Origin: a virus
Lineage: Duplodnaviria; Heunggongvirae; Uroviricota; Caudoviricetes
Reading direction: 5' to 3' (one strand)
DNA length: 49,782 bases
Virus record (IMG/VR): IMGVR_UViG_2721755728_000004
Positions within the stretch are counted from its first letter, which is position 1; each line of letters starts with the position of its first letter. The notes under the pieces were generated by a model. It was not told the DNA's origin and searched no databases. It saw nothing but the letters and a program-made list of their open reading frames with translations. Of this stretch, positions 3,308 through 49,279 are shown piece by piece. The position numbers and the translations under genes are program-made.

Positions 3308-3883
3308 CTACGGCAGTGCTGGCCATTCAATATCCTGTGCAGTTGACGTATCAACACGGTTCAGCAATACCCGATACTTTTTCCAGGCTTCCAGCAACGA
3401 GATTTCTTCCTCCGTTGCAATTTCCAGATCTGCAGCATCCTGAAGTGGCGCAATATGCTCACTGGCTACCTGCATCAGGCTGTTTTTTGTTTCTTCCGCC
3501 TCCCGGATCCGGAACAGTTTTTCTGCTTCTGCATCTTTCACCCAGGCTGTGCCGTTCCACTTCTGAAACTCCCCTTCCGGGGATAACCAGGTGACATTTT
3601 CCGGTAATGAGCCGAGTTCAGAAATAAATAACGCGTCGCCGGAAGCCACGTCATAAACCGTTTTACCCCGATGATCTTCAACGAGATGCCACGATGACTC
3701 ATCACTGTTGAAAACAGCCACGAAGCCAGCCGGAATATCTGGCGGTGCAATATAGGTACTGTTTGCTGGCAGACCTGTATGAGGCGGAATATATGCGTCA
3801 CCTTCACCAATAAATTCATTAGTTCCGGCCAGCAGATTATAAATTTTTATGGTCCGTGGTTGTTCACTCATTCTGAATGCCAT
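3308..3883 (-). CDS. tfa: Tail fiber assembly protein (Tfa)
   Basis: 191 aa, immediately downstream of stf on the same strand, Tfa-like sequence. Confidence 0.85.
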
Positions 3884-6797
3884 TATGCAAGCCTCACAAT
3901 GTAGTTAAATGCGATGTTTTTGACGGTGTTTTCCGCGTTACCAGCAGCGTTAACGGTGATGGTGTGTCCATGTGAGCCAATCGCAACAGAGTGCGTATGA
4001 GCACCAATACCGACAGTATGTGCGTGAGCACCTGCAGATGCAGCTGTGCCGCTGACACTATGAGTGTGCGCTCCTGCAGCACTTGTATTCACACTGGCCG
4101 CAGACACTACCTTATGTACTGACCCATTTTGTGACCACTGGCTGACTGCTGATGCGCCTGTGACACTATGAGTATGGTTTCCGGCACTTGCGGCTGTACC
4201 GCTCACACTGTGCGTATGCGCCCCGGTGTTATTCGTGGATTTAGTGCCGTAATCAAACGACGATGTGGTTTTCGTCCCCAAATCCGTACTGGATGCACTG
4301 GCGCTGTGGGTGTGCGATTTAATGCCGTCCTGTTCCTGAGACAATACGGCCCGACCACTGGCAGGTTTGCCCTTAATCGTCCAGCCACGCATATCAGGGA
4401 TCACGCCTGACGGATAAGCGGTTGCAAGTTTCGGGTAAGCGGATTTGTCAAAAGTCTGCCCCTGCATCAGGGCATAACCAGACGGAACGGTATCTGATGG
4501 CCACGGGATTGGTGCGCCAGGCGGATAAAACTGCTCTGATGGTGTATAGAGTGAATAAACTGTACCGTCCGTTAACCCTTCCGGCTTATTAGCAGAATAT
4601 GCTGGTGACGTATGAATAGTCACGCTGGCATTACTGGTATAATCCCATTGAATATTTACACCAGTCGCATAATTTCCGATTGCAACGTAAATATCGTAAG
4701 TATCACCAGATGTATTGACCCAGGCAAAATTTGTAAACCCTGTCGATGTGCGCTGCCATAAAGCACCAGTAATCCCCTTCGGATTACCATTACCTGCACG
4801 CAAAACAAGTTCAGATATACCTGCCTGTTGAGGTGACCCCACGTTAAATCCCGCGCCACCAATCAACGTAATTGAAACAACAGAACTCGCCTGTGGCATG
4901 GTTACCGTTGCTAATTTGAACCAACCAGCACCACCGCTGAATGACATTGTTGTTGAGTTAAGCGTACCAATATCTTTCGGCGTCAGTGTTATATCCGCTG
5001 AAAGCGCCTTACCATTCACCTTACGGGCAGAAGGTACCCGACCATTCGCATTATCATTAGCTGCTTTCACTGCTTTCGGTGTCGCGGCAAGCGTTTCAGA
5101 TGCGCTGTTGGTTGCACTACTGAGCTGGACAATTCCTTTTTGTGCTGTCGTAGCGTCCTGAGCAGTATATTTCCCGTTAGCAAGGTCATAGGCTGCCTTT
5201 ACCGACTTTGGCGTTGCCGCCAGCATTTCAGATGTGCTGTTGGTCGCGCTGCTGAGCTGAACTATCCCTTTCTGTGCTGTCGTTGCATCCTGTGCGGTGT
5301 ATTTCCCGTTAGCCAGCTCATACGCGGCCTTAACGGCTTTTGGCGTTGCCGCCAGTGACTCGGAAGTGCTGTTAGTCGCACTGCTGAGCTGTACTATCCC
5401 CTTTTTCGTCGTGCTCGCATCCTCAAGCGCCACGGCGGATGCAATATCCTCTGCCCGTTTTGCCGCTGTCTCGGCGCGCGTTGCCGCGGATTCCGCCGTA
5501 CTTTTGCTCTGAGCTGCCGCCGTCGCACTGCCAGCTGCCTCTGTCGCCTTCGTGGATGCCGTCGTGGCGCTGCCCTTTGCTGCTGACGCCTGTCTGGTCG
5601 CCTCATCTTTTGAAGCAGACGCAGATGATGCCGATGACGCCGCCGAACTGGCGGACGATGCGGCAGCCGTTTTTGAGGATTCTGCGCTGGTTTCCGACGC
5701 TTTCGCGTTCGTCTCGGATGTCTTCGCTGCGGAAGCAGACCTCGCTGCTGCGCTGGCCTGTTCAGTGGCTTCGCCAGCCTTCGTTGTGGCTGTTGAAGCG
5801 GACGATGCGGCGCTTTCTGCCGATTTTCCGGCAGCGGTGGCACTGGCTGAGGCCTGCCCGGCACTTGTTGACGCGGCACTGGCAGACGACGCAGCCGCTG
5901 TTTTTGAGCCTGCCGCAGCTGAGGCGCTCTGTCCCGCTGCCGTCTCAGAAGACCTGGCGTTCGTCTCGGACGTTTTTGCCGCCTTCGCGGAATTTGCTGC
6001 CGCCGTTGCCGAGGAAGCTGCGCTACTGGCGCTCGAGGATGCGTTCGTTTCTGATGATTTTGCCGCCTCTTTTGAAGCCGACGCATCCCGGGCTGAGGTG
6101 GCAGCTTCTGACGCTTTCGTGGTCGCGGTGGATGCAGAAGTGGCGGCTGATTGTTGTGACGCTGCAGCATTCGTTCTGACGTTTTCGCGGCAGCGGCACT
6201 GGTAGCTGCCGCGCTTTTTGAGGACTCTGCAGCGGCAGCACTTTTTTCCGCTTCAGTGGCCTTTGTTGATGCCGTTCCTGCGCTGGAAGACGCTGACTGA
6301 GCCGACGAAGCGGCCTGTCCGGCTGACGTGCTGGCTGCACGTGCTGAATCTGCAGCATCAGTCGCATGGGTTGCCGCCTCACGGGCAGATGTGCCGGCAT
6401 CACTGGCTGACTTCTTCGCGGCTGCCGTGTTCTGTGCCACCACGGACGCGTTACGCGCCACCTCTTCCACCATCTGTTCAAAACGGCGCAGTGCCTCCGG
6501 ACGGGCATCATCCTCCGTCATGGCACCGAGAAAATCATTCAGCGTACCCGGCTGAGAATCTTCATACACGGTGATGGTCCCGGCATGTGACGGCGGGAAT
6601 CCTTCCACCAACAGAATAACGCTGTACTGACCGTACTCAACGTCCATGCTGTAACGCCCGGCTTCATCCGGATTTTCTGAGGCCAGCGTGTTCACCACCA
6701 CCGTGGTGCTGTTACGTTTTGCTTTCAGCTGGATTGTGCAGTTCTGTACCGGTTTTCCTGTGCCGTCTTTCAGTACACCTGAAATCTTTACTGCCAT
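3883..6797 (-). pseudogene. stf: Side tail fiber protein Stf, interrupted by an apparent 1-nt frameshift near 6174-6176
   Basis: N-terminal approx. 208 codons (from ATG at 6797) are lambda Stf-like, then the Stf-like Ala/Ser/Thr-rich sequence continues in another frame down to the conserved C-terminus (..[18 protein letters not shown]) at 3883. The ORF-track entry 5394..6803 reads Arg/Pro-rich nonsense after the shift. Confidence 0.6.
5070..5433 (-). repeat. Tandem 117-bp (39-aa) repeats inside stf, about 2.7 copies
   Basis: Protein repeat [41 protein letters not shown] occurs three times in a row; DNA shows the matching direct repeats. Boundaries approximate. Confidence 0.6.
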
Positions 6798-12045: not shown

Positions 12046-12719
12046 TTGTCGGTATACCTCTCTCGTTTACTCAGTTGTTCAGGAATATGGTGCAGCAGCT
12101 CACCGTCGCCGCAGTAAATGGCGGCATGATTCGGCACCGATGAACCAAAACAGCACAGCAGAATATCGCCCGCCTGTGCAGAGGACAGGGGCACCCGGTA
12201 AAAGCCCGTTGCCTCCATATTGTCCAGGTACAGGTTCTGACCGTTTCGCCACCACTCATCCTCGCGGTGAAAATCCGGCATCTCAATCCCCGCCAGATGG
12301 TATGCATCCCGGAACAGCGTGTAACAGTCCGTCACCCCGTGCTCAAAACGCCGCCCGGTCAGGTGTGGAACACAGCGGAATTTATGAATGTCTCCCCGGC
12401 AGACCAGCCACCAGGACAGTGCGCTTTTTATCTGCAGACGCCGGTCTGCCTCGCTCAGCCAGGGCAGACCACAGGGATGACTGTGGACCAGCGCCACAAT
12501 CCCCCCCTGCATCTCTGCCTGCAGCCAGTCTTCCGGTGCAATACGAAAATACGCCTCCGGCTCTGCGGAGATATTCACGCAGGGAAAATATCTTTCCCCC
12601 TCCGGCGTTCTCACCACGAAGCCGCACGACTCCGCTGGCGCACATCGCCGGGCGTGCGCCAATATATTGCTATAGAGCATGAGAACTCCTGATAAAAAAC
12701 CCAGCCGAAGCTGGGTCAT
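11943..12719 (-). CDS. Tail assembly protein K (MPN/JAMM + NlpC/P60 domains)
   Basis: HSHP metal-binding motif and NlpC/P60-like C-terminal part; overlaps the start of I. True start may be internal. Confidence 0.85.
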   Translation of the reverse strand: MTQLRLGFLSGVLMLYSNILAHARRCAPAESCGFVVRTPEGERYFPCVNISAEPEAYFRIAPEDWLQAEMQGGIVALVHSHPCGLPWLSEADRRLQIKSALSWWLVCRGDIHKFRCVPHLTGRRFEHGVTDCYTLFRDAYHLAGIEMPDFHREDEWWRNGQNLYLDNMEATGFYRVPLSSAQAGDILLCCFGSSVPNHAAIYCGDGELLHHIPEQLSKRERYTDKWQRRTHSLWRHREWHASAFTGICNDLAAASTFV

Positions 12720-12734
12720 TTCGTTGGCAATCTG

Positions 12735-13739
12735 TTAGTAGTGATGCAGTGAAGGAGGTAATTCTTTGTTCTTAAGTCTTACCCATGCAGAAAGATTCGT
12801 TGGTCCGTCTGGCTCATTAATATCAATATCTCGCGTGTGATTGATTAAAACGTCTCTCGCCATTCCGATAACATACGAGAACTCATGGCCGTAGTCGTAG
12901 CACCTGCCAGAATAGTTTGATTGAATTTGCTTTAGCGCCGGATACAGTTCGCGGAATAATGCCTGTGAGCGGTTGGCATAATCCCATAGCCATACAAGGC
13001 TGTTTGCTTCTTTCGCTGAAAACTCATTGGTGCTCTTCTCTTGTTTGCCGATTAACTCTCCTTCAAGCGGAACGCGAGCAGCAAGTGACAGAGCTTCGGT
13101 AAACTGCTCCTCGCTGATTTCTTTGTATGAACACCCAAAATGAGATTTCAGTGACGACCACATGGTAATCATCGCCTTCGCCTGTTTTTCTTTTGGCAGA
13201 GACTGACCGCGACTCATGACGAGTTGTTTAATGGCTTCCTGCTGTTCAGTGGTGATTTTCCCCAGCAATGCCTTTTTAGCTTTGCGCGGGTTAACCACAT
13301 GGCCTTTAGTCCAGTACTCGTAGAGCACATCGTCACACTCTTCCTGATACTGGATTACCTTCTCGCGGATTTCAGGGCGGACTTTGTTTGGTTGAATACT
13401 TGAAAGCCAAGCCGCAAATTTACGAAAGGCAAGACATGTCATTAACTGTTTACCGCCAGCAGAAGGTATTTCGATTTCCGAAATACCTTTGGCAAACCTC
13501 TGTTTTAACTTAACAAATTGAGCAGCCCAAACCATCCCCATACCTTCAACAACAGGCTTCATAGGAACATAAGGCTCATTGTTAATTCCAACCAAAAAGA
13601 GATTTGTTCCGTGGAATGGAACATTGATTGTGCGATCTGCAATTGCTAAACTAGTCATATCAGTTTTCTCGTGGTTAACTGGTAATTTAGAAGCCTCAAT
13701 GGTTGCAGCCATTGGGGCTTCGCTGTTTTTAGCGACCAT
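12735..13739 (-). CDS. Antirepressor-like protein (Ant-type)
   Basis: 334 aa from ATG at 13739 (RBS GAGGTG); N-terminal region resembles phage antirepressor domains; lies directly downstream of an Arc-like gene. Family assignment from memory only. Confidence 0.55.
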   Translation of the reverse strand: MVAKNSEAPMAATIEASKLPVNHEKTDMTSLAIADRTINVPFHGTNLFLVGINNEPYVPMKPVVEGMGMVWAAQFVKLKQRFAKGISEIEIPSAGGKQLMTCLAFRKFAAWLSSIQPNKVRPEIREKVIQYQEECDDVLYEYWTKGHVVNPRKAKKALLGKITTEQQEAIKQLVMSRGQSLPKEKQAKAMITMWSSLKSHFGCSYKEISEEQFTEALSLAARVPLEGELIGKQEKSTNEFSAKEANSLVWLWDYANRSQALFRELYPALKQIQSNYSGRCYDYGHEFSYVIGMARDVLINHTRDIDINEPDGPTNLSAWVRLKNKELPPSLHHY

Positions 13740-13902
13740 TCGCCACCTCTTCCCTAACACCTTTTGCCAGCAAACGAACAATTGCAGAGTTCAGAGATAT
13801 ACAGTCCATTTCCGCCAGGCGGCGAAGGTCTTCATTCAGCCGTGATGGAAGGCGAAGGTTGAGTTTGATATTTTTGCGCTCAGTGAAAAGTGTATCTTGC
13901 AT
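13729..13902 (-). CDS. Arc-like ribbon-helix-helix repressor (57 aa)
   Basis: ORF below the 60-aa track cutoff, found by hand: MQDTLFTERKNIKLNLRLPSRLNEDLRRLAEMDCISLNSAIVRLLAKGVREEVANGR. RBS AAGGAG upstream; stop overlaps the ant start; RHH pattern like P22 Arc. Confidence 0.6.
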   Translation of the reverse strand: MQDTLFTERKNIKLNLRLPSRLNEDLRRLAEMDCISLNSAIVRLLAKGVREEVANGR

Positions 13903-14008
13903 TATCTAATCTCCTTTATTTGGTGCCAAAGTGACGCCATGAAGGCCATAATGCCACCATTGAAATCGTATGGCAATATGGCACCATGATTTTTTTGAGA
14001 GATTTGCA

Positions 14009-14329
14009 ATGGCCGAAAAACAAGTAAAAGACTACGACAAGTTCAACCTCCGTTTTCCTGACGGAATGCGAGATGCTATAGCTGAACGAGCCAAACGAAA
14101 CGGGCGCTCTATGAACTCAGAGATTGTTCAGATACTGGAAGATGCCTTGAATGCAGAAAATACTCTTGGGGAAATAGCAGACAAAATCAACAGCGTCTCG
14201 GTTCCGCTAAATGTTGATGCGCTAGTTCAACTTCAAGCCCAAGTGATCGCCATGCAAAAAGAAATACAGGAAAAGTTCAGAGAGCAGAACGAAAAGTTGA
14301 GAGAACTGCTAAACAAAAAACCCACCTGA
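14009..14329 (+). CDS. Mnt-like ribbon-helix-helix repressor
   Basis: FNLRFPDGMRDAIAERAKRNGRSMNSEIVQILEDAL closely resembles the P22 Mnt N-terminus; transcribed divergently from arc-ant. Confidence 0.65.
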   Translation: MAEKQVKDYDKFNLRFPDGMRDAIAERAKRNGRSMNSEIVQILEDALNAENTLGEIADKINSVSVPLNVDALVQLQAQVIAMQKEIQEKFREQNEKLRELLNKKPT

Positions 14330-14348
14330 CGGTGGGCATAATCCATTA

Positions 14349-18300: not shown

Positions 18301-18448
18301 GACGCTCCATAAAACGCTGCATACGGGCAGAAGACCGTTCTGCATCGCTGGCTGCACCATTCAGAAGGTTTTTGATACGGGGAATTTCATTTTTAAACTC
18401 TGCCGCATCAATCCCCAAATCAATGACCAGGTTGGCTATCTGGTCCAT
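15383..18448 (-). CDS. Tail tape measure protein H
   Basis: About 1020 aa, coiled-coil rich, between T and M; start taken at MDQIANLVIDLG. Confidence 0.9.
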   Translation of the reverse strand: MDQIANLVIDLGIDAAEFKNEIPRIKNLLNGAASDAERSSARMQRFMERQTQAARQTTQAASSAATAASVHAQTVEKNAQAHERMAREVEKTRQRMEALSQKMREEQAQAMALAEAQDKAAAAFYRQIDSVKQASAGLQELQRIQQQIRQARNSGGIGQQDYLALISEVTAKTRVLTQAEEEATRQKVAFIRQLKEQATRLNLSSSELLRAKAAQLGVSSAAEVYIRKMEQAGKATHSLGLKSAAARQEIGVLIGELARGNLGALRGSGITLANRAGWIDTLMSPKGMMLGGVIGGIAAAVYGLGKAWYDGQKEGEEFNRQLSLTGHYAGVTAGQLWTLSRAISGNGITQHAAAGALAQVVGSGAFRGNDIGMVARAAAQMERSVGQSVSDTINQFKRLKDDPVNAAKALDNELHFLTATQLEQIRVLGDQGRSSDAARIAMSALAEETGRRTADIDNNLNALGSTLKYLSDLWSRFWDAAMNIGREDSLDEQIAALQEKVSRAKRLPWTASSSQVEYDQQRLNDLQEKKRQKDLQDAKEQAERNYQEQQKRRNAENAALNRMNETEAARHQREIARINSMQYADQAVRDAAIQRENERYEKALASGKKKTRETRNDEATRLLLQYSQQQAQVEGQIAAARQSAGIATEKMTEAHKQLLALQQRISDLDGKKLTADEKSVLARKDELIQALTLLDVKQQELQKQTALNDLKKKTIQLTSQLAEEERAQRQQHDLDIATVGMGDQQRQRYQVQLSLRQKYQQQLEQLRRDSEQKGTYNTDDYRKAEQALTESLNRQLNENRRYWQQLEVVQGNWKNGVLRAFQDFTVDADNTAGTAEQVFSSAFSNMGNGLATFVTTGKLNFKSFTSSVLSDMAKILAQATMMKSIKGIGSVLGFDLSSLSLNANGGIYQSADLSRYSGTVVNRPTFFAFAKGAGVMGEAGPEAILPLRRGADGKLGVVADIGGSGMAMFAPQYNIEINNDGTNGQIGPAALKVVYDLGKKAAADFMQQQARDGGRLSGAYR

Positions 18449-18770
18449 AACGCACACCTCCGGAAATACCTTCCCCAAGATGCATCAGTTCTTCGTCCGT
18501 TCGCTCCGGTATCCCGTTCTCTTCCGGTAAAAGGCTGAAATCAGCCACCGCAGCATCACTGCTGCCGGACACCATTCTCACGATCAATGCCTTCAGCGAG
18601 GCAAACTGTGCATCCATCCACACATCACTGAAGCTCTGCATCCGGAAATAATCGCCCCACTCACCAAGCTCAGTGGCAGACATTTCCGACAGCATCCGCC
18701 GCCAGTCTGCCCGCCGGAACTCCCGGGCAAGCCGCATGACAAACTGCATTTCCCGCGTCAGGACTTTTCC
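18420..18770 (-). CDS. Tail assembly chaperone T segment (expressed as G-T fusion by -1 frameshift)
   Basis: The frame at -1 relative to G is open from the end of G to the stop at 18420; arrangement is identical to lambda G/G-T. Confidence 0.55.
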   Translation of the reverse strand, partial: GKVLTREMQFVMRLAREFRRADWRRMLSEMSATELGEWGDYFRMQSFSDVWMDAQFASLKALIVRMVSGSSDAAVADFSLLPEENGIPERTDEELMHLGEGISGGVRYGPDSQPGH

Positions 18771-19144
18771 GGCGTCAGCGCCTCATGCTCATCATCCACG
18801 GCATTATCAATGGCCCCCATACCGCTCAGCGACAGAACCATCTCCGCCCCCGCACCCAGGGCATCATACGACCATGTTGTAATAACGGATGCGCAAAGCG
18901 TCTCTACATCCTTAGACTGATCCGCATTCCACAGTGAGCGGGAAACCAGCCAGGCATTGATATCCATCCCCATCCGCAGAAAAGCAATCTGTCGTTCAGC
19001 CTCCGGCAGTTCTCCCTCCCCGGCATCAAACTTTGCCGTTCGCTGCTGAACAAACGTCAGATATTCAATTCTCTGCAGCCCGGACAGCTCACTGAGCACC
19101 ACGGACTGTTTTTCATAATTAAACGTGTCCTGTTTCAGAAACAT
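18758..19144 (-). CDS. Tail assembly chaperone G
   Basis: Starts MFLKQDTF.. like lambda G (MFLKTESF..); about 128 aa. Confidence 0.8.
   Translation of the reverse strand: MFLKQDTFNYEKQSVVLSELSGLQRIEYLTFVQQRTAKFDAGEGELPEAERQIAFLRMGMDINAWLVSRSLWNADQSKDVETLCASVITTWSYDALGAGAEMVLSLSGMGAIDNAVDDEHEALTPEKS
18764..18770 (-). promoter_or_regulatory. Candidate -1 programmed frameshift site (G GAA AAG) for G-T
   Basis: Heptamer G_GAA_AAG three codons before the G stop, with the -1 frame open into T; lambda uses G_GGA_AAG at the equivalent place. Confidence 0.35.
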
Positions 19145-20360: not shown

Positions 20361-20935
20361 CGGGTCAGCCATAACCTCAGTTGTTGTTTCAGTGCATACC
20401 CAAGCTGTTTCGGCATTTCCGCAGCAATGATGTGGTCGCGGGCATCTTCAAATGCCTGTGTCAGCGGTCCGGACAGCGGGATTTTCACCACATCAATGGG
20501 GTAACGATTTTTGCCATCAATACGTCGCATCACATGCCAGCGACCATTCGCCAGTTGCTGAATAAACGCATCCCGGAAAAGATATTTACCCACCTTCAGC
20601 ACACTGCCACGGTACTGCAGTTTTCCACCACGCCGGGCCAGTCTGACCCGGGCTGTCCCCAGCTTAATGGCGGGCAGATTGCCCCGGTTAACGCGGATCC
20701 TGGCCGTCATTTTTCCTGACGGACTGGCTTTAAACACCCGGACACGCTGACGTACCAGTTTCAGGGGGATCCCTTTCACCTGGTTATCTCCCGCAACGGT
20801 ATTCCCGGCAACCTGCCGGGTGGCAACCGAGACCGCTTTCTGTGCCAAACGGTTTATCGCCCATGCGCTGGCCTGTGGCACCATACGGGTATCAAGGCTG
20901 TTCAGATTGCGGATGGCATTCTCAAGCCCCTTCAT
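20357..20935 (-). CDS. Tail completion protein Z
   Basis: 192 aa, same length as lambda Z. Confidence 0.85.
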   Translation of the reverse strand: MKGLENAIRNLNSLDTRMVPQASAWAINRLAQKAVSVATRQVAGNTVAGDNQVKGIPLKLVRQRVRVFKASPSGKMTARIRVNRGNLPAIKLGTARVRLARRGGKLQYRGSVLKVGKYLFRDAFIQQLANGRWHVMRRIDGKNRYPIDVVKIPLSGPLTQAFEDARDHIIAAEMPKQLGYALKQQLRLWLTR

Positions 20936-20946
20936 CCCACACCTCT

Positions 20947-21222
20947 TTACTCAATAAAGATCATTGGCTTACTGTTAAAACGTTCATGCCGTGTGACCGT
21001 CCATTGTTGTCCGTCATAAACAACGCGATCCCCGCGCCGTGGGCGGTATCCCGAAGAAAACACCACCAGAGAGACCGCAGGTCCGGACAGAGCATTCAGC
21101 TCTGCCAGTGTTTCTCCCGGGATCACAGTCATATCGACATCATTAATCGAGGCTGTCTTTCCCATCTTTCTGACCGTGATCGCATCCATACGCGCTGCCA
21201 GCCGGGAAAAGGGATCAGACAT
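20947..21222 (-). CDS. Head-tail joining protein (FII-like)
   Basis: 91 aa between the head genes and Z; RRGD..W.V motif reminiscent of lambda FII. Confidence 0.55.
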   Translation of the reverse strand: MSDPFSRLAARMDAITVRKMGKTASINDVDMTVIPGETLAELNALSGPAVSLVVFSSGYRPRRGDRVVYDGQQWTVTRHERFNSKPMIFIE

Positions 21223-21299
21223 TGAGTTTTACCGGCACTTCTTCTGCACTGGTTCCGGCATCTGCCCATACAACCCCGACCAGCGGATCAGAGCCGCTG

Positions 21300-21539
21300 T
21301 TAGTCAAGCTGAACTTTTCCTGACTTCAGATAAACCTTCTTACCCGTTTTCATGTCATCCGTTTTCAGCTTAGGCAGCATAAACACACCTTCGGTTATGC
21401 CGTCGCCTGTTTCTCCCTGTGGAATATCGGTCAGCGCCACCGCAAAAACATCACCCACCTGCACCAGATCTCCGCTGCTGATGGCTGCACTGGCAACAAT
21501 CGCCACCGTTTTTCCTTCTTCTACAAAATTCTTTGCCAT
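21300..21539 (-). CDS. Hypothetical head-tail region protein
   Basis: 79 aa from MAKNFVEEGK..; sits between the capsid gene and FII-like gene; function not recognised. Confidence 0.4.
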   Translation of the reverse strand: MAKNFVEEGKTVAIVASAAISSGDLVQVGDVFAVALTDIPQGETGDGITEGVFMLPKLKTDDMKTGKKVYLKSGKVQLD

Positions 21540-21625
21540 AACTGTCTCCGCACAGCCCCGTTCAGGGGCTGATTTCAGGTACAAAAAAAGCCCTTACGGG
21601 CCATCAGAGTTGTTGTCTGCGACGT

Positions 21626-23584
21626 TTACGCCGTACATTTCACCAGACCGCGGTGATCAACTGGCGCGACACCGGCGTCAATACGCACTTTCGTTGTCAC
21701 GCCATCCACACTGAAGCCCTCCATCTGATCAATATATGGCGTATCCACACCGTTGAGATAAGCCACTTCAATCGTATCGGAGCCTTTGGACGCAGCCAGG
21801 TAGAAGGTGGTCTGGCTGTTATCATCAAGACGAGGCTCTGCAATAACGGTCGCAAAATCTTTCACCGGGTTAATAATACCGGCGTTAATGTCAGCCCCCT
21901 TGACACTTGAGGAGCGAATGACCTGGTTAGCAACAGACTCCATCGCCGTCGGTACCAGTACGAACGCAGGACGAATATTCAGATGACGCTCACCCTCTTT
22001 CTGAACGCGCATCAACTGGCGGGCTTTATCCAGCGATGCCACGTCCATTGCCGCGCTCTCCAGTACGTTTGCATGTTTCGCTTTATCGAACAGACTTACA
22101 TTATCTGTGGAGATTTTCGGGTTAGACGTCAGAATGGCATAAACCAGATCGGCAATAGTGGATTTCGCCGCACGGCCCAGCTTCATCGGGACATCGGTCA
22201 GCATATTCAGATCATCATTGATAATGGCCTGACGGGTGATACTGAACAGCTCGCCATAGGTCGCCAGTGCAATAGTGGCCTGTTTATCTCCGGTGGTGAC
22301 GTATTTATATTCTGCCCCTTCACGCACCTGACGCAGAGCACTGAAGCCCCCCATACCCACACGATGGGCAATTTTAAAATCAGACAACTGACCTTTCCGC
22401 GTCCACTGTTCATAGGTTTCAGGGGCATCTTCCCAGCCCTGCAGAATGGCTTTGTTCGCAACATCCAGCAGAATATTACCGAAGTCAGACGTACTGTGTG
22501 TGAACGCCGCACCGACCATCTGCATCGGGTTATAACTGGAAACACCAATACCCCGTTCAGTCAGTGACATACGGGCATATTCACGCAGGGTCATCCCGTT
22601 GTAGACATTATCACGTTCAGTTTTTTCAAACCCGGCGCGCGCCATCAGCGCCTGGCGGATCCCGTCCCCCACAAAATTACCGTTACCGGCATAAATATGA
22701 GCCGGGGTATTTTTATTGGATGGAGTGGATTCGCGCCCCATCTCGTTCAACAGCTTTTCGCGGGCCTGCTCCAGCGAACATTCAGGATCGGCAAGACACT
22801 GAGCCTGCAGCGTCTGATAACGCCCGCCAAACATGGCAAACAGATCATTAATACCGTTTACACGCGCTTTTTGCTCTGCCAGTACCTGCGCACGGATACT
22901 GTTTTCATCCACCACGGGTGCTGCTGCCTGCACTGGCGTCCGGGAGGCTGCAGGTTCATCATCCTGTACGCGTGGAGCACTGTTGCGTGGCGGAGTAATC
23001 ATGTTTCGAATGGATTCCGGCATCTTTTTAAATTCCTCTGTACGTTTTGACTGAATACATGCCATTGCCTTAACGGCTGGCGTCACCTGATCAGCAAATC
23101 CATGTGCCAGACATTCGGCACCGGACATCCAGGTCTCATCCGCCAGCATGGCAGCAATTTCATCGGTGGTTTTCCCGGTTTTCTGTGCATAAGCGGGTAA
23201 CAGAACCGCCTCAACTTTATCGAGCAGGTCGGCATAGGTGCGCATGTCCTCCGCATCACCGCCCGTAAAGCCAAATGGTTTATGAATCATCATGAAGGAG
23301 TTTTCCGGCATAATGACCGGGTTTCCCACCATCGCAATGACCGACGCCATTGACGCCGCCACACCGTCGACATAAACGGTAATGGACGCACCATGTGTTT
23401 TCAGTGCATTAAAAATGGCGATGCCTTCAAAGACATCGCCACCCGGTGAATTGATATGGAGATTAATGTGGGTGATATCGCCCAGTGCATTCAGATCACT
23501 GATAAACTGCTTCGCCGTAACACCCCAGAAACCAATCTCGTCATAAATATAAATATCCGCGTCACTCTGGTGACCAGCCTGCAT
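21626..23584 (-). CDS. Prohead protease (ClpP/S49-like) fused to major capsid protein
   Basis: N-terminal peptidase motifs (NSPGGDVFEG, GVAASMAS) followed by a capsid-like C-terminal half in one about 652-aa frame from ATG at 23584. Confidence 0.8.
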   Translation of the reverse strand: MQAGHQSDADIYIYDEIGFWGVTAKQFISDLNALGDITHINLHINSPGGDVFEGIAIFNALKTHGASITVYVDGVAASMASVIAMVGNPVIMPENSFMMIHKPFGFTGGDAEDMRTYADLLDKVEAVLLPAYAQKTGKTTDEIAAMLADETWMSGAECLAHGFADQVTPAVKAMACIQSKRTEEFKKMPESIRNMITPPRNSAPRVQDDEPAASRTPVQAAAPVVDENSIRAQVLAEQKARVNGINDLFAMFGGRYQTLQAQCLADPECSLEQAREKLLNEMGRESTPSNKNTPAHIYAGNGNFVGDGIRQALMARAGFEKTERDNVYNGMTLREYARMSLTERGIGVSSYNPMQMVGAAFTHSTSDFGNILLDVANKAILQGWEDAPETYEQWTRKGQLSDFKIAHRVGMGGFSALRQVREGAEYKYVTTGDKQATIALATYGELFSITRQAIINDDLNMLTDVPMKLGRAAKSTIADLVYAILTSNPKISTDNVSLFDKAKHANVLESAAMDVASLDKARQLMRVQKEGERHLNIRPAFVLVPTAMESVANQVIRSSSVKGADINAGIINPVKDFATVIAEPRLDDNSQTTFYLAASKGSDTIEVAYLNGVDTPYIDQMEGFSVDGVTTKVRIDAGVAPVDHRGLVKCTA

Positions 23585-23630
23585 CCTGAACCAGGAATTA
23601 TTCTTCGGACTGGTCGTCGGTGTACTGCGG

Positions 23631-25106
23631 CTACTGTCGTTTCGTTGCGGCACTGCTGCCTCCTTTATCACTGGCCGGATCGGTATCAAATACCAGGTCC
23701 AGCTTGCGGTTTTCATCAATTTCGGCCTTGCGCCGACGTTTGACATCATCCGGATTACGACCACCTGCACGTACCCAGTCTGATTCTGTCGCCGCTCCAC
23801 CACGAATCTGGATTTTCCAGGCCTCAGCCTCCTTAACAGGGTCAATCCACGGCATCACCGGTCCGGAATACACCGCGGTATACAGTGAAGATCGGTCAAG
23901 ATCGCGGGGTAGCCTGATAACACCGGATGCCACAGCCTGTTTCAGCCAGGCACGATACATCGGGCGGGTGACGGCACCAATAAACCAGTCCTGCAGGATC
24001 AGGTAGCCATCAGTGGATTCAACCAGCTCCTGACGCTGGGCGCTGTAAGTGCCGTTATAGTTGCGCGCTGTACTGGAAAAACTCAGACGACTGCCCGCCG
24101 CCACGGCACGCAACTGAGCATTACGAAAAGTTTCAAGGTTAGGATTTGGGCGATCCGACTTCACCATTCCGATTTCTTCGCCGGGTTTCAGATCGTCGTA
24201 AATAATGCCTGGCTGAATGGTAAGCTCGCGTTCATTCTCCTTGCTGTCATTACCATCCGTTTCATAGCTCTGTCCGTCGCCTTTCCGGATGTACATCCCC
24301 AGAGCAGCGGCGACCCTTGCTGCAGTCAGCTCAGAATCTTCATACTCTTTCAGGGCGCTGAGGCGGATCAGCACACCGGACAATAAAGACGTCCCGCGCA
24401 TCTGGTGCAGACGGCGAACAAATTTAAGATGCAGCATTCGCTCTGCATCCACTTCTTTGGTTTCCATCTGCCGTCCGGATACAGGACGACTTTTATACAC
24501 CAGATATTTTTCGGGACGCCCCCAGTCATCAACAAACACGCCCTGATTCAGCCTGTTGCTCTCATCACTGGTCATGGGAATAAAGTCCGGCTCGAGCGCC
24601 TCCAGCCAGAAATGAACACCGGCAGAAGGCGTCAGGCTGTTTATGCGCCCGGAAACCATCTGGGCAAACACCTCACCATCGCGCAGCCAGGTACGCAGCA
24701 TCAGACGTTCCAGCATCGGACGGGTAAACTGCCCGGTGACCTCCGGACTGACAGACCATTCACTCCATCGGGTACGTATCTCCGCAGCCAGGTCACGGGC
24801 AATGGCCCCATTGCGTAATACCGGATGTGGCTCGACAATAATCCCGTTTTTCCCCACCACCCGTTCTTCCAGCTTGTCAAATACACCAATGACCAGATCG
24901 TGGTTGTTATCAAGGTAACGAGCCTGCTCACGTAACGACACGGCCCCGTACTGGCTTAACTGGTCGGCAGTTCGGTTCTCCCGTCGGGCTTTGTGTGTCC
25001 GCGTCGTTTTTACGGCCTCATAAGCCTGGATCACCGCACGGGAACGCAGCCTTGCCGCTTTCCATCCTGGTGAAAAAACGCCAATCACATCATCAAGAAT
25101 TGCCAT
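23631..25106 (-). CDS. Portal protein
   Basis: About 490 aa between the W-like gene and the protease-capsid gene; start (MAILDDVIG) overlaps the W stop. Confidence 0.85.
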   Translation of the reverse strand: MAILDDVIGVFSPGWKAARLRSRAVIQAYEAVKTTRTHKARRENRTADQLSQYGAVSLREQARYLDNNHDLVIGVFDKLEERVVGKNGIIVEPHPVLRNGAIARDLAAEIRTRWSEWSVSPEVTGQFTRPMLERLMLRTWLRDGEVFAQMVSGRINSLTPSAGVHFWLEALEPDFIPMTSDESNRLNQGVFVDDWGRPEKYLVYKSRPVSGRQMETKEVDAERMLHLKFVRRLHQMRGTSLLSGVLIRLSALKEYEDSELTAARVAAALGMYIRKGDGQSYETDGNDSKENERELTIQPGIIYDDLKPGEEIGMVKSDRPNPNLETFRNAQLRAVAAGSRLSFSSTARNYNGTYSAQRQELVESTDGYLILQDWFIGAVTRPMYRAWLKQAVASGVIRLPRDLDRSSLYTAVYSGPVMPWIDPVKEAEAWKIQIRGGAATESDWVRAGGRNPDDVKRRRKAEIDENRKLDLVFDTDPASDKGGSSAATKRQ

Positions 25107-25324
25107 CAGAACCTCGCCAGCCGGTACCCGGGATGCCCCCGTCGTCGTGTAATCAGAGCCGCAAGGCGGCGCTCCCACTCCTGCCGCCCCTGCCGGATCT
25201 CAGATAAGTTTTCCATGGTCATCTGCTGACCATTAAAAGTGACGGATTTTCCGTCCAGCACCGCCATTTCAGCTTCCGTATAACGCTGAATCATGGCTTC
25301 AATATCATTCTGATTCATAACCAT
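25106..25324 (-). CDS. Head-tail joining / head completion protein (gpW-like)
   Basis: 72 aa immediately after the terminase gene; C-terminus RRRGHPGYRLARF resembles lambda W (..RRRGPAGFYV). Confidence 0.55.
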   Translation of the reverse strand: MVMNQNDIEAMIQRYTEAEMAVLDGKSVTFNGQQMTMENLSEIRQGRQEWERRLAALITRRRGHPGYRLARF

Positions 25325-27418
25325 CCTCCGGAAGTCAGCCAGGGGTTAACATCGTCAGTTACTGTTTTCTTCCGTTTTTGTTTTTTAACAGGCGTGGATA
25401 CCGGTTCCGGTGAGGGTGACGGTTCGGTACTGTCCGGGACACACTCCAGCCAGGTTTCCCGGCTCGCCCACTCCGGTGCATCCGGCCAGCGGATCTTTTC
25501 GTATCCATGCAGAATGACCAGAGCCTCGGCATACACCATCAGGTCAAAAGCTTCGTTGGCACCGCGACCCGGCTTACTCCATTTCCCGTCACTGCTCCGC
25601 TCTTCATACGTCAGTTCGTCGTAAAACCAGCTCCCCAGCCAGTCAGGGAAATGCACATAGCCGGGACCTGGCGAGTCACGCCATAACGCGTTATTCACCC
25701 GGTCTTTCAGGGCATCCGTCTGAAGAAGCCAGAGCGGCACATCACCTGCGGCCTGCGCCCGTCGGCCCGTTCGTCCGGTGTTATCAGGGAATGTACGGGT
25801 GATCAGTTTTGCTCGCCGGATGCTGTCGCCCTTAAACAGGTAAATACGTTTACCAAGGCCATCACGACGGCAACGACGCCAGAATTTATAGGCATTATCA
25901 GTGACCCCGTCTTCACCGCCGGAGTCCACCGCCATTGCCATCAGTCGCATTTGTTGAGAAGGGGCGGAGGCCAGCGGCCAGCTTTTATGAAAAACATCCG
26001 TCAGCAGGACATCCCAGTCTTCCGGATAGCTGGCCGGATCAATTCGCTGGCTCTCCCCGTCGCTGTCACCGCGCAATGACTGCGTGATGTTGTAACGATC
26101 AATAATCCAGCGTTCGCCACGGCTGCCATAGCCCGTTACCTGAACCACAAAACGGCGATGACGTCCCGCCTGCACATCCACTGTCGCCACAAGGAAATTA
26201 ACGCCATCCGGCACACTGCGGGAAGGAACTGGCTCTGCCCGCTGCTCAAGCAGTTCACTTTTTCGTTGCTCCATGCTGGCGCGGGGAAGATAAGGTAATC
26301 CCCAGTCGGTATTGATAACCGTCTTGAGTGTTTCTTCACTTCCGGTTGTCTCGTATTCCTGTTCTGCAGTAAGCAGTTTGTAAACGAGTTGCGAGAGTGT
26401 CTGGTAAGCAGCTGCCGGACCCTCCATCCAGAATGACGCAATACGTGAGCGTCGGGGATCACCATAACGACTGCCATCCGCATTGATGGATTCACCATCC
26501 CGCAACCAGACCCCACGTCCGTTCAGCTCACGTTTTTGTTCAGGCATAATCCGTCCTGAACAGGAAGGACACTGAATATAAGCCGCCTCACTTGCCAGCA
26601 CAGGATCGGCAATATCACGGAAACCAGCAACCACATCGCCGCAGGGCTGAAAATACTCACCACAGTGTGGACAGGGCCAGTACCAGCGACGGCGATCACC
26701 ACGGTTATAGAGCGACAGGATCCCCGTGGTTGGTGGAGCCTCATGCGGTGAAGTCCGTCGCCATTTCACATCCTTCACATCCCTGCCGGGGGAACTCTCC
26801 ACAAGCGTCATACCGCTGGACATAAATGTGGTGGTACGTTTTGAGGCAAGAGAGAAAGCATCCCCCTCGCCATCAATATCTTCCGGAAAACGGTCATAAT
26901 CCGTCAGCGCGACGCATTTATAATCTGATGAAGGACATGATATTGACTGACGGCCAGCCGATTTTCAGGTAGTTGCCAGCAAGGAATGTTCTGTCATAAA
27001 CGTTGTTGTCATTTTTGTTCGGACTCAGGCGACTGACCACTTCCGGGCTGACGCGAAACGTTCTGGCGAGTCGTTTTTTGGAGTGTTCGCGGGCTTTTTC
27101 CTCCGTCATCTGAATGATCAGCATATCAGCAGGATCGCAAATCACGTTGTAAATCACCCAGCCGTCAATCAGGCCGATAGTCTTGCCGGTTCGTGCCGGG
27201 CCAACAAATATCACTGCGTCGTATTCACGCGAGGCCAGGCAGTTCATAGGCTCAATAACATACGGTGCCACCAGCGGATCCCACGGGACTGAGTTCCCTG
27301 CCCCCATGGGCACCCGCATATACTGAGCAACGGCATCAGCAACCCGCATTCGTCTCGGTGCGCGAAGGATATAACCTGAATCGGTTCGTGCTGCCTTTGC
27401 GGTTTCCTGATTCAGCAT
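25315..27418 (-). pseudogene. Terminase large subunit (lambda gpA-like), split by an apparent frameshift near 26930-26950
   Basis: N-terminal 166 codons (Walker A GPARTGKT) end at a stop at 26918; the gpA-like continuation (TDYDRFPEDIDGEG, CPHCGE..) is open in another frame from 26964 downward. The two frames overlap by only 44 nt. Confidence 0.65.
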
Positions 27419-27912
27419 TACTCCTCCTGCTGTAATTCCTCCTCATCATCCGCACCTGCTTCAGTCACCCGCAGGGCTATCTGATCGCGCAGATCATCAA
27501 TAATGGACTGAACACGGCTCACAGCGGCAGGCTGCAGACCGCAGTCACGTTCAAGAATATCCGGTAATGTCTCCAGCACCTGCACGACCGCTTTTGCCCA
27601 GATGGCAAACTCCCGTCTGACATCACTGGCCGGAATGAGTTGTGCCGTTTCCTGTTCGAACTTAAGACGCTCACGTTCAGACTGATACCAGGCTTTGCGC
27701 TCATGTGCGTCCATTTCGCCTTCTGCAACCGGCGGTGGTAATGCCAGAAATGCCGACACAATATCAACCACCCGATAAAGCTTGAGGTTGCTTTCATGCC
27801 CCCCTGCAACGGGTAGATTTTGCAGCCTTGCCGCAGCAGTCTGGCGATGTACACCTGACAGTGCCGCCAATTGACTGATATTCAGCGTCAGATTTTTTAA
27901 CTCTCGATCCAT
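27418..27912 (-). CDS. Terminase small subunit (Nu1-like, N-terminal HTH)
   Basis: 164 aa directly upstream of and overlapping the large terminase start; acidic C-terminus. Confidence 0.6.
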   Translation of the reverse strand: MDRELKNLTLNISQLAALSGVHRQTAAARLQNLPVAGGHESNLKLYRVVDIVSAFLALPPPVAEGEMDAHERKAWYQSERERLKFEQETAQLIPASDVRREFAIWAKAVVQVLETLPDILERDCGLQPAAVSRVQSIIDDLRDQIALRVTEAGADDEEELQQEE

Positions 27913-28085
27913 ACCCGCTCCAGAATGTTTTAAACATGCATCTTGCGAACGACTTTAGGCAAACGGTGTTAGTGATGAACAAAAAACAATCAAAATCGAC
28001 ACCACAAAAATAAAAATACTGTAATATCAATCTATTACAGTAGTGGTGATGACGGATGAAATTTCAAAAACTAGCCTTTTTCCGC

Positions 28086-28150
28086 GACGCTCCCGCCCCG
28101 TGGCAGGGGCCCCCACCGGGAGGACCCGACAGCCTGACAGCCTGACAGCC
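28086..28150. other. Candidate cos / packaging-site region
   Basis: GC-rich island (cccgccccgtggcaggggcccccaccgggagg) followed by a tandem octamer gacagcct x3 at 28128..28150, about 200 bp upstream of the small terminase. Assignment is inference. Confidence 0.3.
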
Positions 28151-34022: not shown

Positions 34023-34433
34023 GCTATATTAAAGCTTTAATTTCAGGCCCCATCGGATCACACATGGAGAGTTTTTATGAATAACCCCGTCTGTCTTGAT
34101 GACTGGTTGATTGGCTTTAAAAGCTTATGCTGTACTTTGGCCGTAATAGCTCTGCTAATAATATAATAAGCAGACTCATTGTGTTTAGGGACATTGTACT
34201 GGAAGAAAACATTTTAAACATCAGGCAAATAACCAAGTCACCAGCTAAATAATAAGTTAACAGACATGAGTCCCGGGACATTACCATTGCCCCATTTAAA
34301 GCACAAAACCCGCTCATCAGCGGGTTTTCTACTTTTTCTTAACGTCGGGTATACAAAGCCCATCGTTGAAAAAATTTTATCCATATTTTTTGAAGAATGC
34401 AAACATCATGTCGCCATCTTCAGCAAAAATCAT

Positions 34434-38898: not shown

Positions 38899-40482
38899 GT
38901 CCACAAAACTGCCAACTTCCGCTTCTTGCTCTTAGCGGACATTAGCATAGGCTATTTACCATAACGCCTCATTACGCGCACCGCCCAGACTGACTCAGCG
39001 CGTTTCTGGCATATCCCCGGTAAAACAAGTAACAAACCACCCGAAAATGAACACCAGAAACGCGACTTAAGAATCTACCCTATGAATGGATATGCACTCA
39101 ACCGAATCGATCTTGGTTTCAATCTATTTTATCGGGATCAGGCTTCTTTTTAGGTAACTTCGGGGGCTTAACTTGCTGATGACTTTGCGTTCGGCGCGTA
39201 GGCCAGGGATGGTCAGCTTTAGATTTAACATAGTATTTTGAGCGTAAATCAATACGGGCATTATCCACTCGTTCATGGACACTCTTTTCATCATCCAGTG
39301 GTATAGGCTCCGGGCCATCAACATACTTTTCCCAGCCCAGCGCTTTCCCGTCATACAGAACGTTAATTTCACCGTCAAAGTTCTCACATACAGTAACAAC
39401 CGAATGCCTAAGTCGATATCCCCGGCCCTCACTGCGTACCTGAAACGCACTGCTTTTGTACTGGAAAGTGAGATTTTTAGACAGAACGCGCTTCGCCTGT
39501 AGGCTGAAGATATAACCCAGTTCCTCTTCAGAATGGTGCACATCAAGATGAGCATTATCAGTAGTACGAGGCGACGTAGCGAACCGGTTGTTATAGGCTT
39601 CAATAAAGGTCGGCAACCATGCATTTGCTGTTTCAATATCACTGATATTCTGAAGCCACATTTCTTTGACCAGCCTGTCCTGTAGTGTCTGATTGGCGCG
39701 CTCTACCCGCCCTTTTGCCTGCGGGCTGTTGGCATGGATTGGCTCGATGCCCAGTGTCTTTATCGCACGAGTGAACTGGGTCAGCTCACCTTCCCGCTCT
39801 GGGTTATTTACCCTGAATATACTGTGTCTATCAGAGTAGAGAGCGAGCGGTACGCCATGATCATTAAGGTAACCCCGGAGGGTTTCCATGTAAGCCCGGG
39901 TTGTTTCAGCAGGCACAAAACGCAACGCCATCAACGCACTGGTGGCATCATCAATGAAAACGATCAGTGTACATCTGGGGCCTCGATTTTCAAACCAGTC
40001 ATGAGGTGAGCCATCAATCTGGATCAGTTCACCGTAAGATGGTCGTCGCATGCGGCGTTGATATATACGGGCAATTTTACGACGGCGTTCACGCCATAAC
40101 CCCTCTTCTATCATCCACTTTCTGAGAGTTTCAACGGATAAAGATAAACCGTGTATCTCGCGCAATTTTTCGCACGCAAACGTAGGTCCAAAATCAGCGT
40201 AACGGCCTTTGAGGAGTGAAATTACTGTTGCTCTGAATTCAGTAGAAAAGGAATTATTAGGACGCTTTCCACGTCGGTGGGAAACCAGACCAGAAGGCCC
40301 TTCATTTCTATACCGTTGCACCAGACGTTTAACCTGCCGAATAGAAATGCCAATGCGTGCCGCAGCTTGTTCCTGAGTAATATGTCGATTAATTGACTCC
40401 TGAATAATCTGAAGTCGGTGGAGTTCCTTATGACTCATCGTAACAGTCTCTTTGATCATGAAAAATCCCCCAGAGAATTGTC
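38899..40482. mobile_element. Putative insertion sequence, about 1.58 kb, carrying one DDE transposase
   Basis: Bracketed by identical 8-bp direct repeats TGGGGACA (38891..38898 and 40483..40490) that may be a target-site duplication. Terminal inverted repeats could not be identified, so boundaries are tentative. Confidence 0.4.
39119..40459 (-). CDS. DDE transposase with integrase-core (rve) domain and N-terminal HTH (IS481/ISNCY-like)
   Basis: 446 aa; HTH N-terminus, then D (QIDGSPH), D (YSDRHS) and E (GRVERANQ) spaced like retroviral-integrase-type transposases. Confidence 0.7.
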   Translation of the reverse strand: MIKETVTMSHKELHRLQIIQESINRHITQEQAAARIGISIRQVKRLVQRYRNEGPSGLVSHRRGKRPNNSFSTEFRATVISLLKGRYADFGPTFACEKLREIHGLSLSVETLRKWMIEEGLWRERRRKIARIYQRRMRRPSYGELIQIDGSPHDWFENRGPRCTLIVFIDDATSALMALRFVPAETTRAYMETLRGYLNDHGVPLALYSDRHSIFRVNNPEREGELTQFTRAIKTLGIEPIHANSPQAKGRVERANQTLQDRLVKEMWLQNISDIETANAWLPTFIEAYNNRFATSPRTTDNAHLDVHHSEEELGYIFSLQAKRVLSKNLTFQYKSSAFQVRSEGRGYRLRHSVVTVCENFDGEINVLYDGKALGWEKYVDGPEPIPLDDEKSVHERVDNARIDLRSKYYVKSKADHPWPTRRTQSHQQVKPPKLPKKKPDPDKID

Positions 40483-47812: not shown

Positions 47813-49279
47813 ATGAGAGAAGTTGAAATGAAATATCCGACAGGCGTGGAAAACCATGGAGGGAAATTACGTATCTGGTTTGTTTATAAAGGCGTAAGAG
47901 TCAGGGAAAACCTGGGGGTTCCTGACACAGCAAAAAACAGGCGCGTTGCAGGTGAGCTACGCGCCTCTGTTTGTTACGCAATAAAAACTGGTGTTTTCGA
48001 CTATGCAAAACAGTTTCCCTCCTCACGCCATCTGGAAAAATTTGGTGAGACCCGACAAGATTTAACCATAAAAGAACTGGCTGAAAAATTTCTGGCACTG
48101 AAAGAAACTGAAGTCGCAAAAACATCACTCAACACATACCGTGCCGTCATCAAAAATATCCTGAGCATAATCGGTGAAAAAAATCTTGCCTCATCGATTA
48201 ATAAAGAAAAATTACTGGAGGTTCGTAAAGAGCTACTGACTGGATACCAGATCCCCAAAAGTAACTATATTGTTACACAACCAGGGAGATCGGCTGTAAC
48301 TGTAAATAATTACATGACAAATCTTAACGCCGTGTTCCAGTTTGGTGTTGATAACGGTTACCTGGCAGATAACCCGTTTAAGGGGATCTCGCCATTAAAG
48401 GAATCAAGAACCATTCCGGATCCTCTTTCGCGGGAGGAATTCATCCGTCTTATCGATGCGTGCAGAAATCAGCAAGCCAAAAATTTATGGTGTGTTTCTG
48501 TTTATACTGGCGTTCGCCCTGGTGAGCTGTGTGCACTTGGATGGGAGGACATAGATCTGAAAAATGGAACAATGATGATCAGGAGAAATTTAGCAAAAGA
48601 CCGTTTCACGGTACCAAAAACACAGGCGGGAACCAATCGGGTCATTCATCTTATTAAGCCAGCAATCGACGCTCTCCGGAGTCAGATGACATTAACGAGA
48701 CTGAGCAAAGAGCATATCATTGATGTTCACCTCAGAGAGTATGGCAGAACAGAAAAACATAAATGCACCTTTGTTTTTCAACCTGAAGTGTCAGCGAGAG
48801 TAAAAAATTATGGTGACCATTTTACCGTTGACTCAATAAGGCAGATGTGGGACGCAGCGATAAAACGTGCCGGACTCCGCCATCGAAAATCATATCAGTC
48901 GAGACATACTTATGCCTGCTGGTCGCTGACAGCTGGTGCTAACCCGGCATTTATAGCAAACCAGATGGGCCATGCAGATGCGCAAATGGTATTTCAGGTA
49001 TACGGAAAATGGATGTCTGAAAACAATAATGCACAGGTAGCTTTGTTAAATACACAGTTAAGCGAGTTTGCCCCAACCATGCCCCATAAATCTTCAATGC
49101 TTTTACCAAAGCGCGCCGCTTCAATAGGCGTTAAGCGATGGTGCATGTCATGCAGCAAATGTTCATTAAAACCAAACTTGTTACGTACCGCGTCAAACAA
49201 TTTCGGCATGAAATCGAGGTATTTCTCCGTCGACCACAGCTGCTCTTCCGGCCACTGTCCTTTGGTTGCGGGTTCATAA
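47813..49279 (+). CDS. Tyrosine integrase; the 3' end of the ORF reads into host rspA antisense sequence
   Basis: Catalytic region with ..HTYACW.. and ..[16 protein letters not shown].. (LGH...Y motif, Tyr near 49004). The last 63 codons beyond about 49089 are antisense to rspA and are probably not native. Confidence 0.8.

Follow-up and report, generated by a model that had tools for sequence, protein, structure and literature searches.

The window, a 49,782-nucleotide stretch of DNA, carries a minus-strand large terminase gene (terL) of the lambda gpA type that is broken into two frames at codon 162/163 by one extra base. We put the probability at roughly 0.58 that this base is an error of the consensus, called from a mixture of reads of near-identical paralogous prophage copies. 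This reading is based mainly on the position of the only two private indels found in the 35.4 kb over which the window aligns with its closest relatives, one in terL and one in a head cement gene. Each coincides exactly with an A/G site that varies between near-identical copies of the prophage, and each presents both alleles in tandem.

One extra base splits the large terminase gene

The N-terminal terL fragment (27418..26918, minus strand) comprises 166 codons, includes the Walker A motif GPARTGKT at residues 73–80 and ends in NIMSFIRL and a stop. Codons 1–162 of this fragment are authentic (tblastn residues 1–162, 100% identity to the intact protein) and are followed by four out-of-frame codons and then TAA. 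The C-terminal frame (25315..26964, minus strand), bounded by a stop codon at 26967–26965, encodes the remainder of the ATPase domain and the nuclease domain in full, with residues 163–700 matching from 26931 to 25318 at 99.6% identity to the L004 TerL (tblastn). Both the N-terminal part, with its Walker A motif and its stop at 26918, and the continuation, open from 26964 to 25315 in another frame, are as the original prediction had described them, and the shift, which had been placed within 26930..26950, lies at 26930–26935.

The alignment to intact relatives that had been proposed as a check places a single additional base at 26930..26935, where the plus strand reads GAAGGA in the window and either GAGGA (the C3-type allele, also found in mEp460) or GAAGA (the OkiPb01675, 493/89 and Res13 type) in relatives. 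On the minus strand, this corresponds to ATGTCCTTCATC in the window vs ATGTCCTCATC or ATGTCTTCATC in relatives. The additional base is either the A at 26931/26932 or the G at 26933/26934, the assignment depending on the parent allele, and it duplicates the adjoining base. Deletion of one base restores a 2103-nt gene of 700 codons, whose 700-aa product is identical at 699 of 700 positions to the intact WP_000934123.1 of the E. coli C3 prophages. A 2.3-kb query matched 591 E. coli chromosomes with identities of at least 99% and 12 phage genomes (mEp460 and relatives) with identities of ~99%; among the matches listed, those of full length comprised 2300 bases each, vs the 2301 bases of the query. 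Downstream of the lesion, 538 codons are open, with neither extra stops nor non-synonymous drift.

The shift falls 3′ of Walker A and directly 5′ of VALTDYD, a Walker B-like segment, and judging from the sequence the allele as written would be a null. The earliest usable start codon in the C-terminal frame is the ATG at 26823, so that any separate product of this frame would lack residues 163–198, including the VALTDYD segment.

The split locus is an ordinary large terminase gene of the lambda gpA family, with predicted ATPase and nuclease domains. The repaired protein matches PF05876 (GpA_ATPase, E = 8.5e-72, residues 41–304) and PF20454 (GpA_nuclease, E = 1.5e-85, residues 326–644, covering the full profile 1–294). 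Taken alone, the N-terminal fragment matches positions 2–124 of the GpA_ATPase profile (E = 7e-31), and the C-terminal fragment matches positions 163–247 of the same profile together with the complete GpA_nuclease (E = 7e-86). The two fragments therefore cover successive parts of one Pfam profile and do not represent a chance pattern of open reading frames. A single polypeptide of ~640–700 aa with both domains is encoded only after the one-base deletion, and not by the window as it stands. No homologue was retrieved in a PDB sequence search with the terminase.

The surrounding genes follow the usual order of a late operon (small subunit, large subunit, W-like gene, portal) and the neighbours of terL are intact. 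The small terminase subunit gene (27418..27912, minus strand; DUF1441 family, PF07278, E = 3e-41; tblastn identity 100%) overlaps the terL start by one base, and its mEp460 counterpart is annotated as terminase small subunit. The W-like gene lies at 25109–25318 and the portal gene at 23601–25106. In the non-coding cargo region downstream of the terminase genes, relatives vary in the copy number of the 8-bp unit GACAGCCT (28128–28135), and the window differs from some of them by a 10-bp indel at 34278, in the non-coding cargo region near cspF; as both variations are present in other relatives, neither is private to the window.

Distribution of the insertion in genomes and viral contigs

A 61-bp probe centred on the terL insertion was run against complete E. 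coli genomes. None of the 1356 genomes carrying this stretch has the insertion, all of them matching at 60 of 61 positions and none exactly. The exact insertion-bearing 31-mer is likewise absent from IMG/VR, from the GTDB species-representative genomes and from metagenome contigs, while the intact site is present in at least 120 IMG/VR contigs. Exact-sequence look-up of the products specific to the window found no record of the 166-aa and 502-aa TerL fragments, of the fusion of the integrase gene to rspA described below (with two alternative starts) or of the 79-aa truncated cement protein. Other one-base indels occur somewhere in terL in ~8 of 120 public contigs (~7%), indicating that disrupted copies are common, whatever their cause.

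The nearest lineage is that of E. coli C3, whose three terL copies are all intact, all carry TCC at Ser162 and all encode an identical terminase, and neither the terL nor the cement insertion is reproduced in independent assemblies of this lineage. The C3 assembly contains the Qin-like prophage twice, as L003 (NZ_CP010119.1 5291013–5340811) and L008 (3453900–3503800). One of these copies terminates, near the end of the record, at a perfect inverted junction within the exonuclease VIII gene, and the other is fused to an ssrA-side prophage; this arrangement would be explained by a large prophage-mediated rearrangement or else by a faulty assembly.

This distribution bears directly on the proposition that the split is functional, through programmed +1 ribosomal frameshifting, transcriptional slippage or a working two-piece terminase. 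Both halves of the protein are well conserved and the two frames overlap by ~15 codons, which such an arrangement would accommodate, and nothing else is in its favour. The 1356 genomes and the viral contigs with the site all hold one continuous 700-codon gene, so the two-frame state is not conserved. Motif criteria for a +1 slippery site come from prfB-type sites, and neither the overlap (UCC UUC AUC AGA UUA UAA) nor the 30 nt upstream contains a prfB-like CUU UGA; an upstream stimulator resembling a Shine–Dalgarno sequence is also lacking, as is any run of seven or more A or T. The second frame, moreover, could be entered independently only at the ATG at 26823, with the loss of residues 163–198 noted above. 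Since the two-frame state is unconserved and both slippery motif and stimulator are lacking, programmed recoding is excluded for practical purposes, and we consider a functional split of any kind highly improbable.

A recoding site of the conserved kind does occur elsewhere in the element. In lambdoid phages, the tail assembly chaperone gene pair G/T is the classic example of a conserved programmed −1 frameshift; the pair in the window (18423–19144, minus strand) is 100% identical to that of relatives, in contrast to the non-conserved shift in terL.

A second private insertion with the same tandem-allele signature

Over the 35.4 kb from 14346 to 49782, in which the window is 99.7–100% identical to its closest relatives, the only private indel besides that in terL is a one-base insertion at 21306–21308 in the head cement gene (DUF2190 / Phage_cement_2; 21215..21539, minus strand). 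The plus strand at 21303–21311 reads GTCAAGCTG in the window vs GTCAGCTG or GTCAACTG in relatives, and the cement protein is truncated after codon 78 of 107, ending in KVQLD and a stop. This insertion was found in none of the 1735 genomes carrying the stretch and is also absent from IMG/VR. A third indel that distinguishes the window from C3, at 44995 (AAAA vs AAA, upstream of the exonuclease gene), was discarded as a private change as three relatives share the state of the window.

At the terL site, the alleles GAGGA and GAAGA are found in tandem as GAAGGA in the window, and at the cement site CAGC and CAAC appear as CAAGC. On the coding strand, both variants are synonymous (TCC/TCT at Ser162 of terL; CTG/TTG at Leu78 of the cement gene). 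TCC and TCT were found in 104 and 23 copies, respectively, the loci compared being mostly IMG/VR contigs, and the rare cement allele was found in the paralogous C3 copy L008, so that C3 possesses both cement alleles. A comparable case is present in C3 itself, in which the annotated frameshift in the tape-measure gene, GTTTG, is a tandem of the known alleles GTTG and TTTG.

The likelihood of this signature arising by chance was evaluated by enumerating all one-base insertions in 20600–27950, ~1% of which show the tandem-allele look given 111 SNP sites among seven relatives. With these seven relatives, the chance that two of two insertions show it is ~1e-4. With ~100 population sequences, the value rises to 4–8% per insertion, and the overall range for the pair is ~1e-4 to 4e-3. 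In addition, the private changes between ~16.8 kb and the end of the window comprise two substitutions (25398 and 45847, the former also found in mEp460) and two insertions, a ratio of ~1:1 that is unusual for spontaneous mutation.

These observations alter the weight of one argument of the original prediction, in which the lack of a homopolymer at the shift was taken to speak against a sequencing slip. There is indeed no long run at the site, but the argument drawn from it does not hold: the extra base sits on a common variant, TCC/TCT at Ser162, with both alleles in tandem, and the second private frameshift, at 21306, bears the same signature.

Mixed-template consensus as the probable origin

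The process that we envisage would require two prophage copies in one genome, one with TCC and the other with TCT at Ser162. Where homopolymer length is uncertain in the consensus, as may be the case for flow-space or single-molecule data, a template holding both bases would fit both sets of reads best, so that a C3-type G-A-GG and an L004-type G-AA-G would yield G-AA-GG, with a spurious +1 base. The cement insertion could have arisen by the same process, CTG and TTG giving CTTG. We infer from the tandem alleles that the alternative alleles were carried by a further copy in the source genome, and that an indel-prone consensus was used to assemble this genome. The three terL copies of the C3 lineage indicate that paralogous templates would have been available, albeit all with TCC in C3 itself. 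Consensus from mixed templates explains both the tandem-allele coincidence and the ~1:1 ratio of private insertions to substitutions, which random real insertion does not. It also agrees with a terL gene that is free of decay apart from the extra base, and with an insertion allele that occurs nowhere else in the sequences searched.

Two observations set bounds on this reading. The tandem state is present at only one of the ~24 sites separating the terL allele types, and at one of 13 in the cement region, so that any mixing of reads must have been local or dependent on sequence context. The extra base is, furthermore, a simple duplication of the adjoining base, which is against an artefact, as duplications of this type are the commonest kind of real +1 mutation.

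Two other considerations were evaluated and set aside. The terL gene is a mosaic of C3-type and OkiPb01675-type alleles, with 7 switches in 2.8 kb, which was considered as a sign of chimeric consensus; this is uninformative because recombination is extensive in the natural population itself, in which ~100 sequences fall into 32 haplotypes at 19 sites. Misaligned crossover as the origin of the insertions was rejected because the flanking polarity at terL is wrong (C3-type markers at lower and L004-type markers at higher coordinates) and because no allele switch occurs at the cement site.

A further explanation takes both frameshifts to be real and derives them from recombination between paralogous prophages, a mismatch in heteroduplex between diverged copies, adjacent to a short same-base repeat, having been resolved mutagenically to leave the two alleles in tandem. 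It would account for the signature at both sites, and we consider it improbable. If it were true, lambdoid prophages residing in one genome could inactivate genes by frameshift directly through gene conversion with each other, and the tape-measure frameshift of C3 would be added as a third case.

Prophage context and the case for a genuine mutation

The window represents a full-length lambdoid prophage of the Qin/mEp460 type located between ydfJ and rspA. The prophage is ~47 kb long, with mEp460-like head and terminase genes and a Qin-type cargo (pinQ, gnsB, cspI/B/F, hokD, relBE, dicB and others). A tblastn search with 50 proteins of its closest relative found all of them open and 85–100% identical, with the exception of TerL, the DUF2190 cement protein and the C-terminus of the integrase. 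Overall, all genes of the prophage are open except terL, the cement gene, the side tail-fibre gene stf and the 3′ end of the integrase gene int, the inactivating lesions other than that in terL being the cement frameshift, the stf frameshift and a deletion spanning int, the prophage junction and rspB.

In the stf gene (3883..6797, minus strand), the loss of one base at ~6174, where GTTT is reduced to GTT on the plus strand, shifts the frame. E. coli OkiPb01675 has the same lesion in a segment of 99.9% identity, the gene being labelled ‘frameshifted’ by PGAP, and for this reason the stf frameshift is probably real. The int gene (47828..49279, plus strand) has its 3′ end replaced at a deletion junction at 49089. 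The deletion, of ~1.76 kb, extends from the 3′ end of int through the prophage–chromosome junction and rspB into rspA, whose 3′ part is missing, and joins int to the interior of rspA. This int–rspA junction is present in only one of 5426 complete genomes, that of E. coli C3 (NZ_CP010119.1), which points to a relative of C3 as the source of the window. Without its int-proximal junction, the prophage would be unable to excise normally. As judged from its sequence, the prophage is already unable to complete its cycle, with the 3′ end of int and the junction deleted and stf frameshifted.

Sequences of other prophage lineages are combined in mosaic fashion across the tail-tip region (5.3–12.7 kb). 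Between tail genes K and L, a moron encoding an Ant antirepressor and an Arc-family repressor (12735–14329) is missing from other Qin-locus prophages and is 100% identical to sequence in another C3 prophage and in several strains; the 1.7-kb stretch 12661–14346 had been suspected to be an IS insertion and proved to be this moron, which is found at the same place in other prophages. A truncated transposase remnant of the ISEsa1 family (IS1202-like) lies at ~39390–40460 (located by homology to L003 36789–37859), between flxA/ydfW and the replication and immunity genes, and is common to all Qin-locus relatives examined.

The state of the prophage is the principal reason for considering that the extra base in terL may be real, namely a very recent spontaneous +1 duplication that created a null allele as one step in prophage decay. 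The int–rspA deletion, also present in the independent C3 assembly, and the stf frameshift, which recurs in OkiPb01675, are very probably real lesions, making both relaxed selection and genuine frameshifts plausible. A third structural gene, that of the cement protein, is also broken, and ~7% of public contigs have one-base indels in terL. In multi-prophage E. coli, furthermore, lambdoid prophages that are defective in packaging or head functions are the rule (PMC2669165).

On this account, however, the position of the insertion on a variant site would have to be a coincidence or the result of recombination-linked mutation between paralogous prophages, and the former is rendered doubtful by the chance values given above for two of two private insertions. 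The ~1:1 ratio of private insertions to substitutions is equally difficult to reconcile with it. The mutation would also have to be recent enough to have left the 538 downstream codons uninterrupted, with 99.6% identity to the intact protein, and rare enough to be found in no other genome, viral contig or metagenome searched. A benefit to the host from packaging or head defects would not be obvious for two such hits. We regard a genuine insertion as the main rival, a substantial possibility that we do not favour, its weight deriving from the already crippled state of the prophage and from the fact that the TCT-bearing copy required by the mixed-template explanation is itself deduced for the source genome.

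Significance of the lesion

A consensus artefact and a fresh null mutation in an immobilised prophage are both known kinds of event, and the terL frameshift has small biological weight under either, one-base frameshifts in prophage terminase genes being routine, by decay or by assembly error. Its more general relevance is methodological: where private frameshifts in multi-copy prophage genes present known alleles in tandem, a consensus artefact should be suspected before a pseudogene or a defective prophage is called. If the base is real, it is one more lesion in a prophage already lacking its int-proximal junction and a working tail-fibre gene. The proposal that packaging is inactivated would then stand in cis and not necessarily for the cell as a whole, as sibling prophages could supply the terminase in trans, C3 having three copies that encode an identical enzyme.

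Comparison with known systems

The terminase of the window has the same domain architecture as that of mEp460 (AFM76039) and of E. coli prophages (WP_000934123.1 and WP_000934100.1), and its terminase DNA is 99.0–99.7% identical to these relatives. The gene order is also the same, with the DUF1441 small subunit followed by TerL, the W-like gene, the portal and a ClpP-protease/MCP fusion. The difference lies in the extra base at codon 162/163, through which a gene encoding 700 aa in mEp460 and the prophages reads as two ORFs in the window.

The prophage occupies the same chromosomal region as Qin (Kim) of E. coli K-12, on the ydfJ side, and shares with it the cargo and regulatory genes pinQ, tfaQ, gnsB, ynfN, cspI, cspB, cspF, rem, hokD, relBE, flxA, dicB and ydfA–D. 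The Qin-type cargo genes, as annotated in relatives, are 100% conserved in the window. Qin of K-12 is a ~20-kb remnant from which the block of head, tail and terminase genes is missing, whereas the form in the window is full-length, at ~47 kb.

The tandem-allele signature has a parallel in PacBio assemblies, in which indels at sites differing between merged haplotypes have been documented (Korlach et al. 2017, PMC5632298). The likeness lies in a one-base indel placed exactly at the nucleotide that differs between near-identical templates, as seen here for two of two private insertions and for the C3 tape-measure frameshift. That study concerned the haplotypes of diploid birds, whereas the templates considered here are paralogous prophages in a haploid genome, and the parallel is therefore one of signature only.

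If the terL insertion is real, a close counterpart is found among the defective prophages of E. coli O157 Sakai (Asadulghani et al. 2009), where the terminase-defective Sp4 is packaged by the terminase of a sibling (PMC2669165). In Sp4 the defect is in the small subunit gene nu1, which is disrupted by an IS element (PMC2669165), whereas the window has a one-base insertion in the large subunit gene. In both systems, nevertheless, packaging, head and tail functions of a lambdoid prophage are damaged, and near-identical siblings reside beside it that would be able to complement it in trans.
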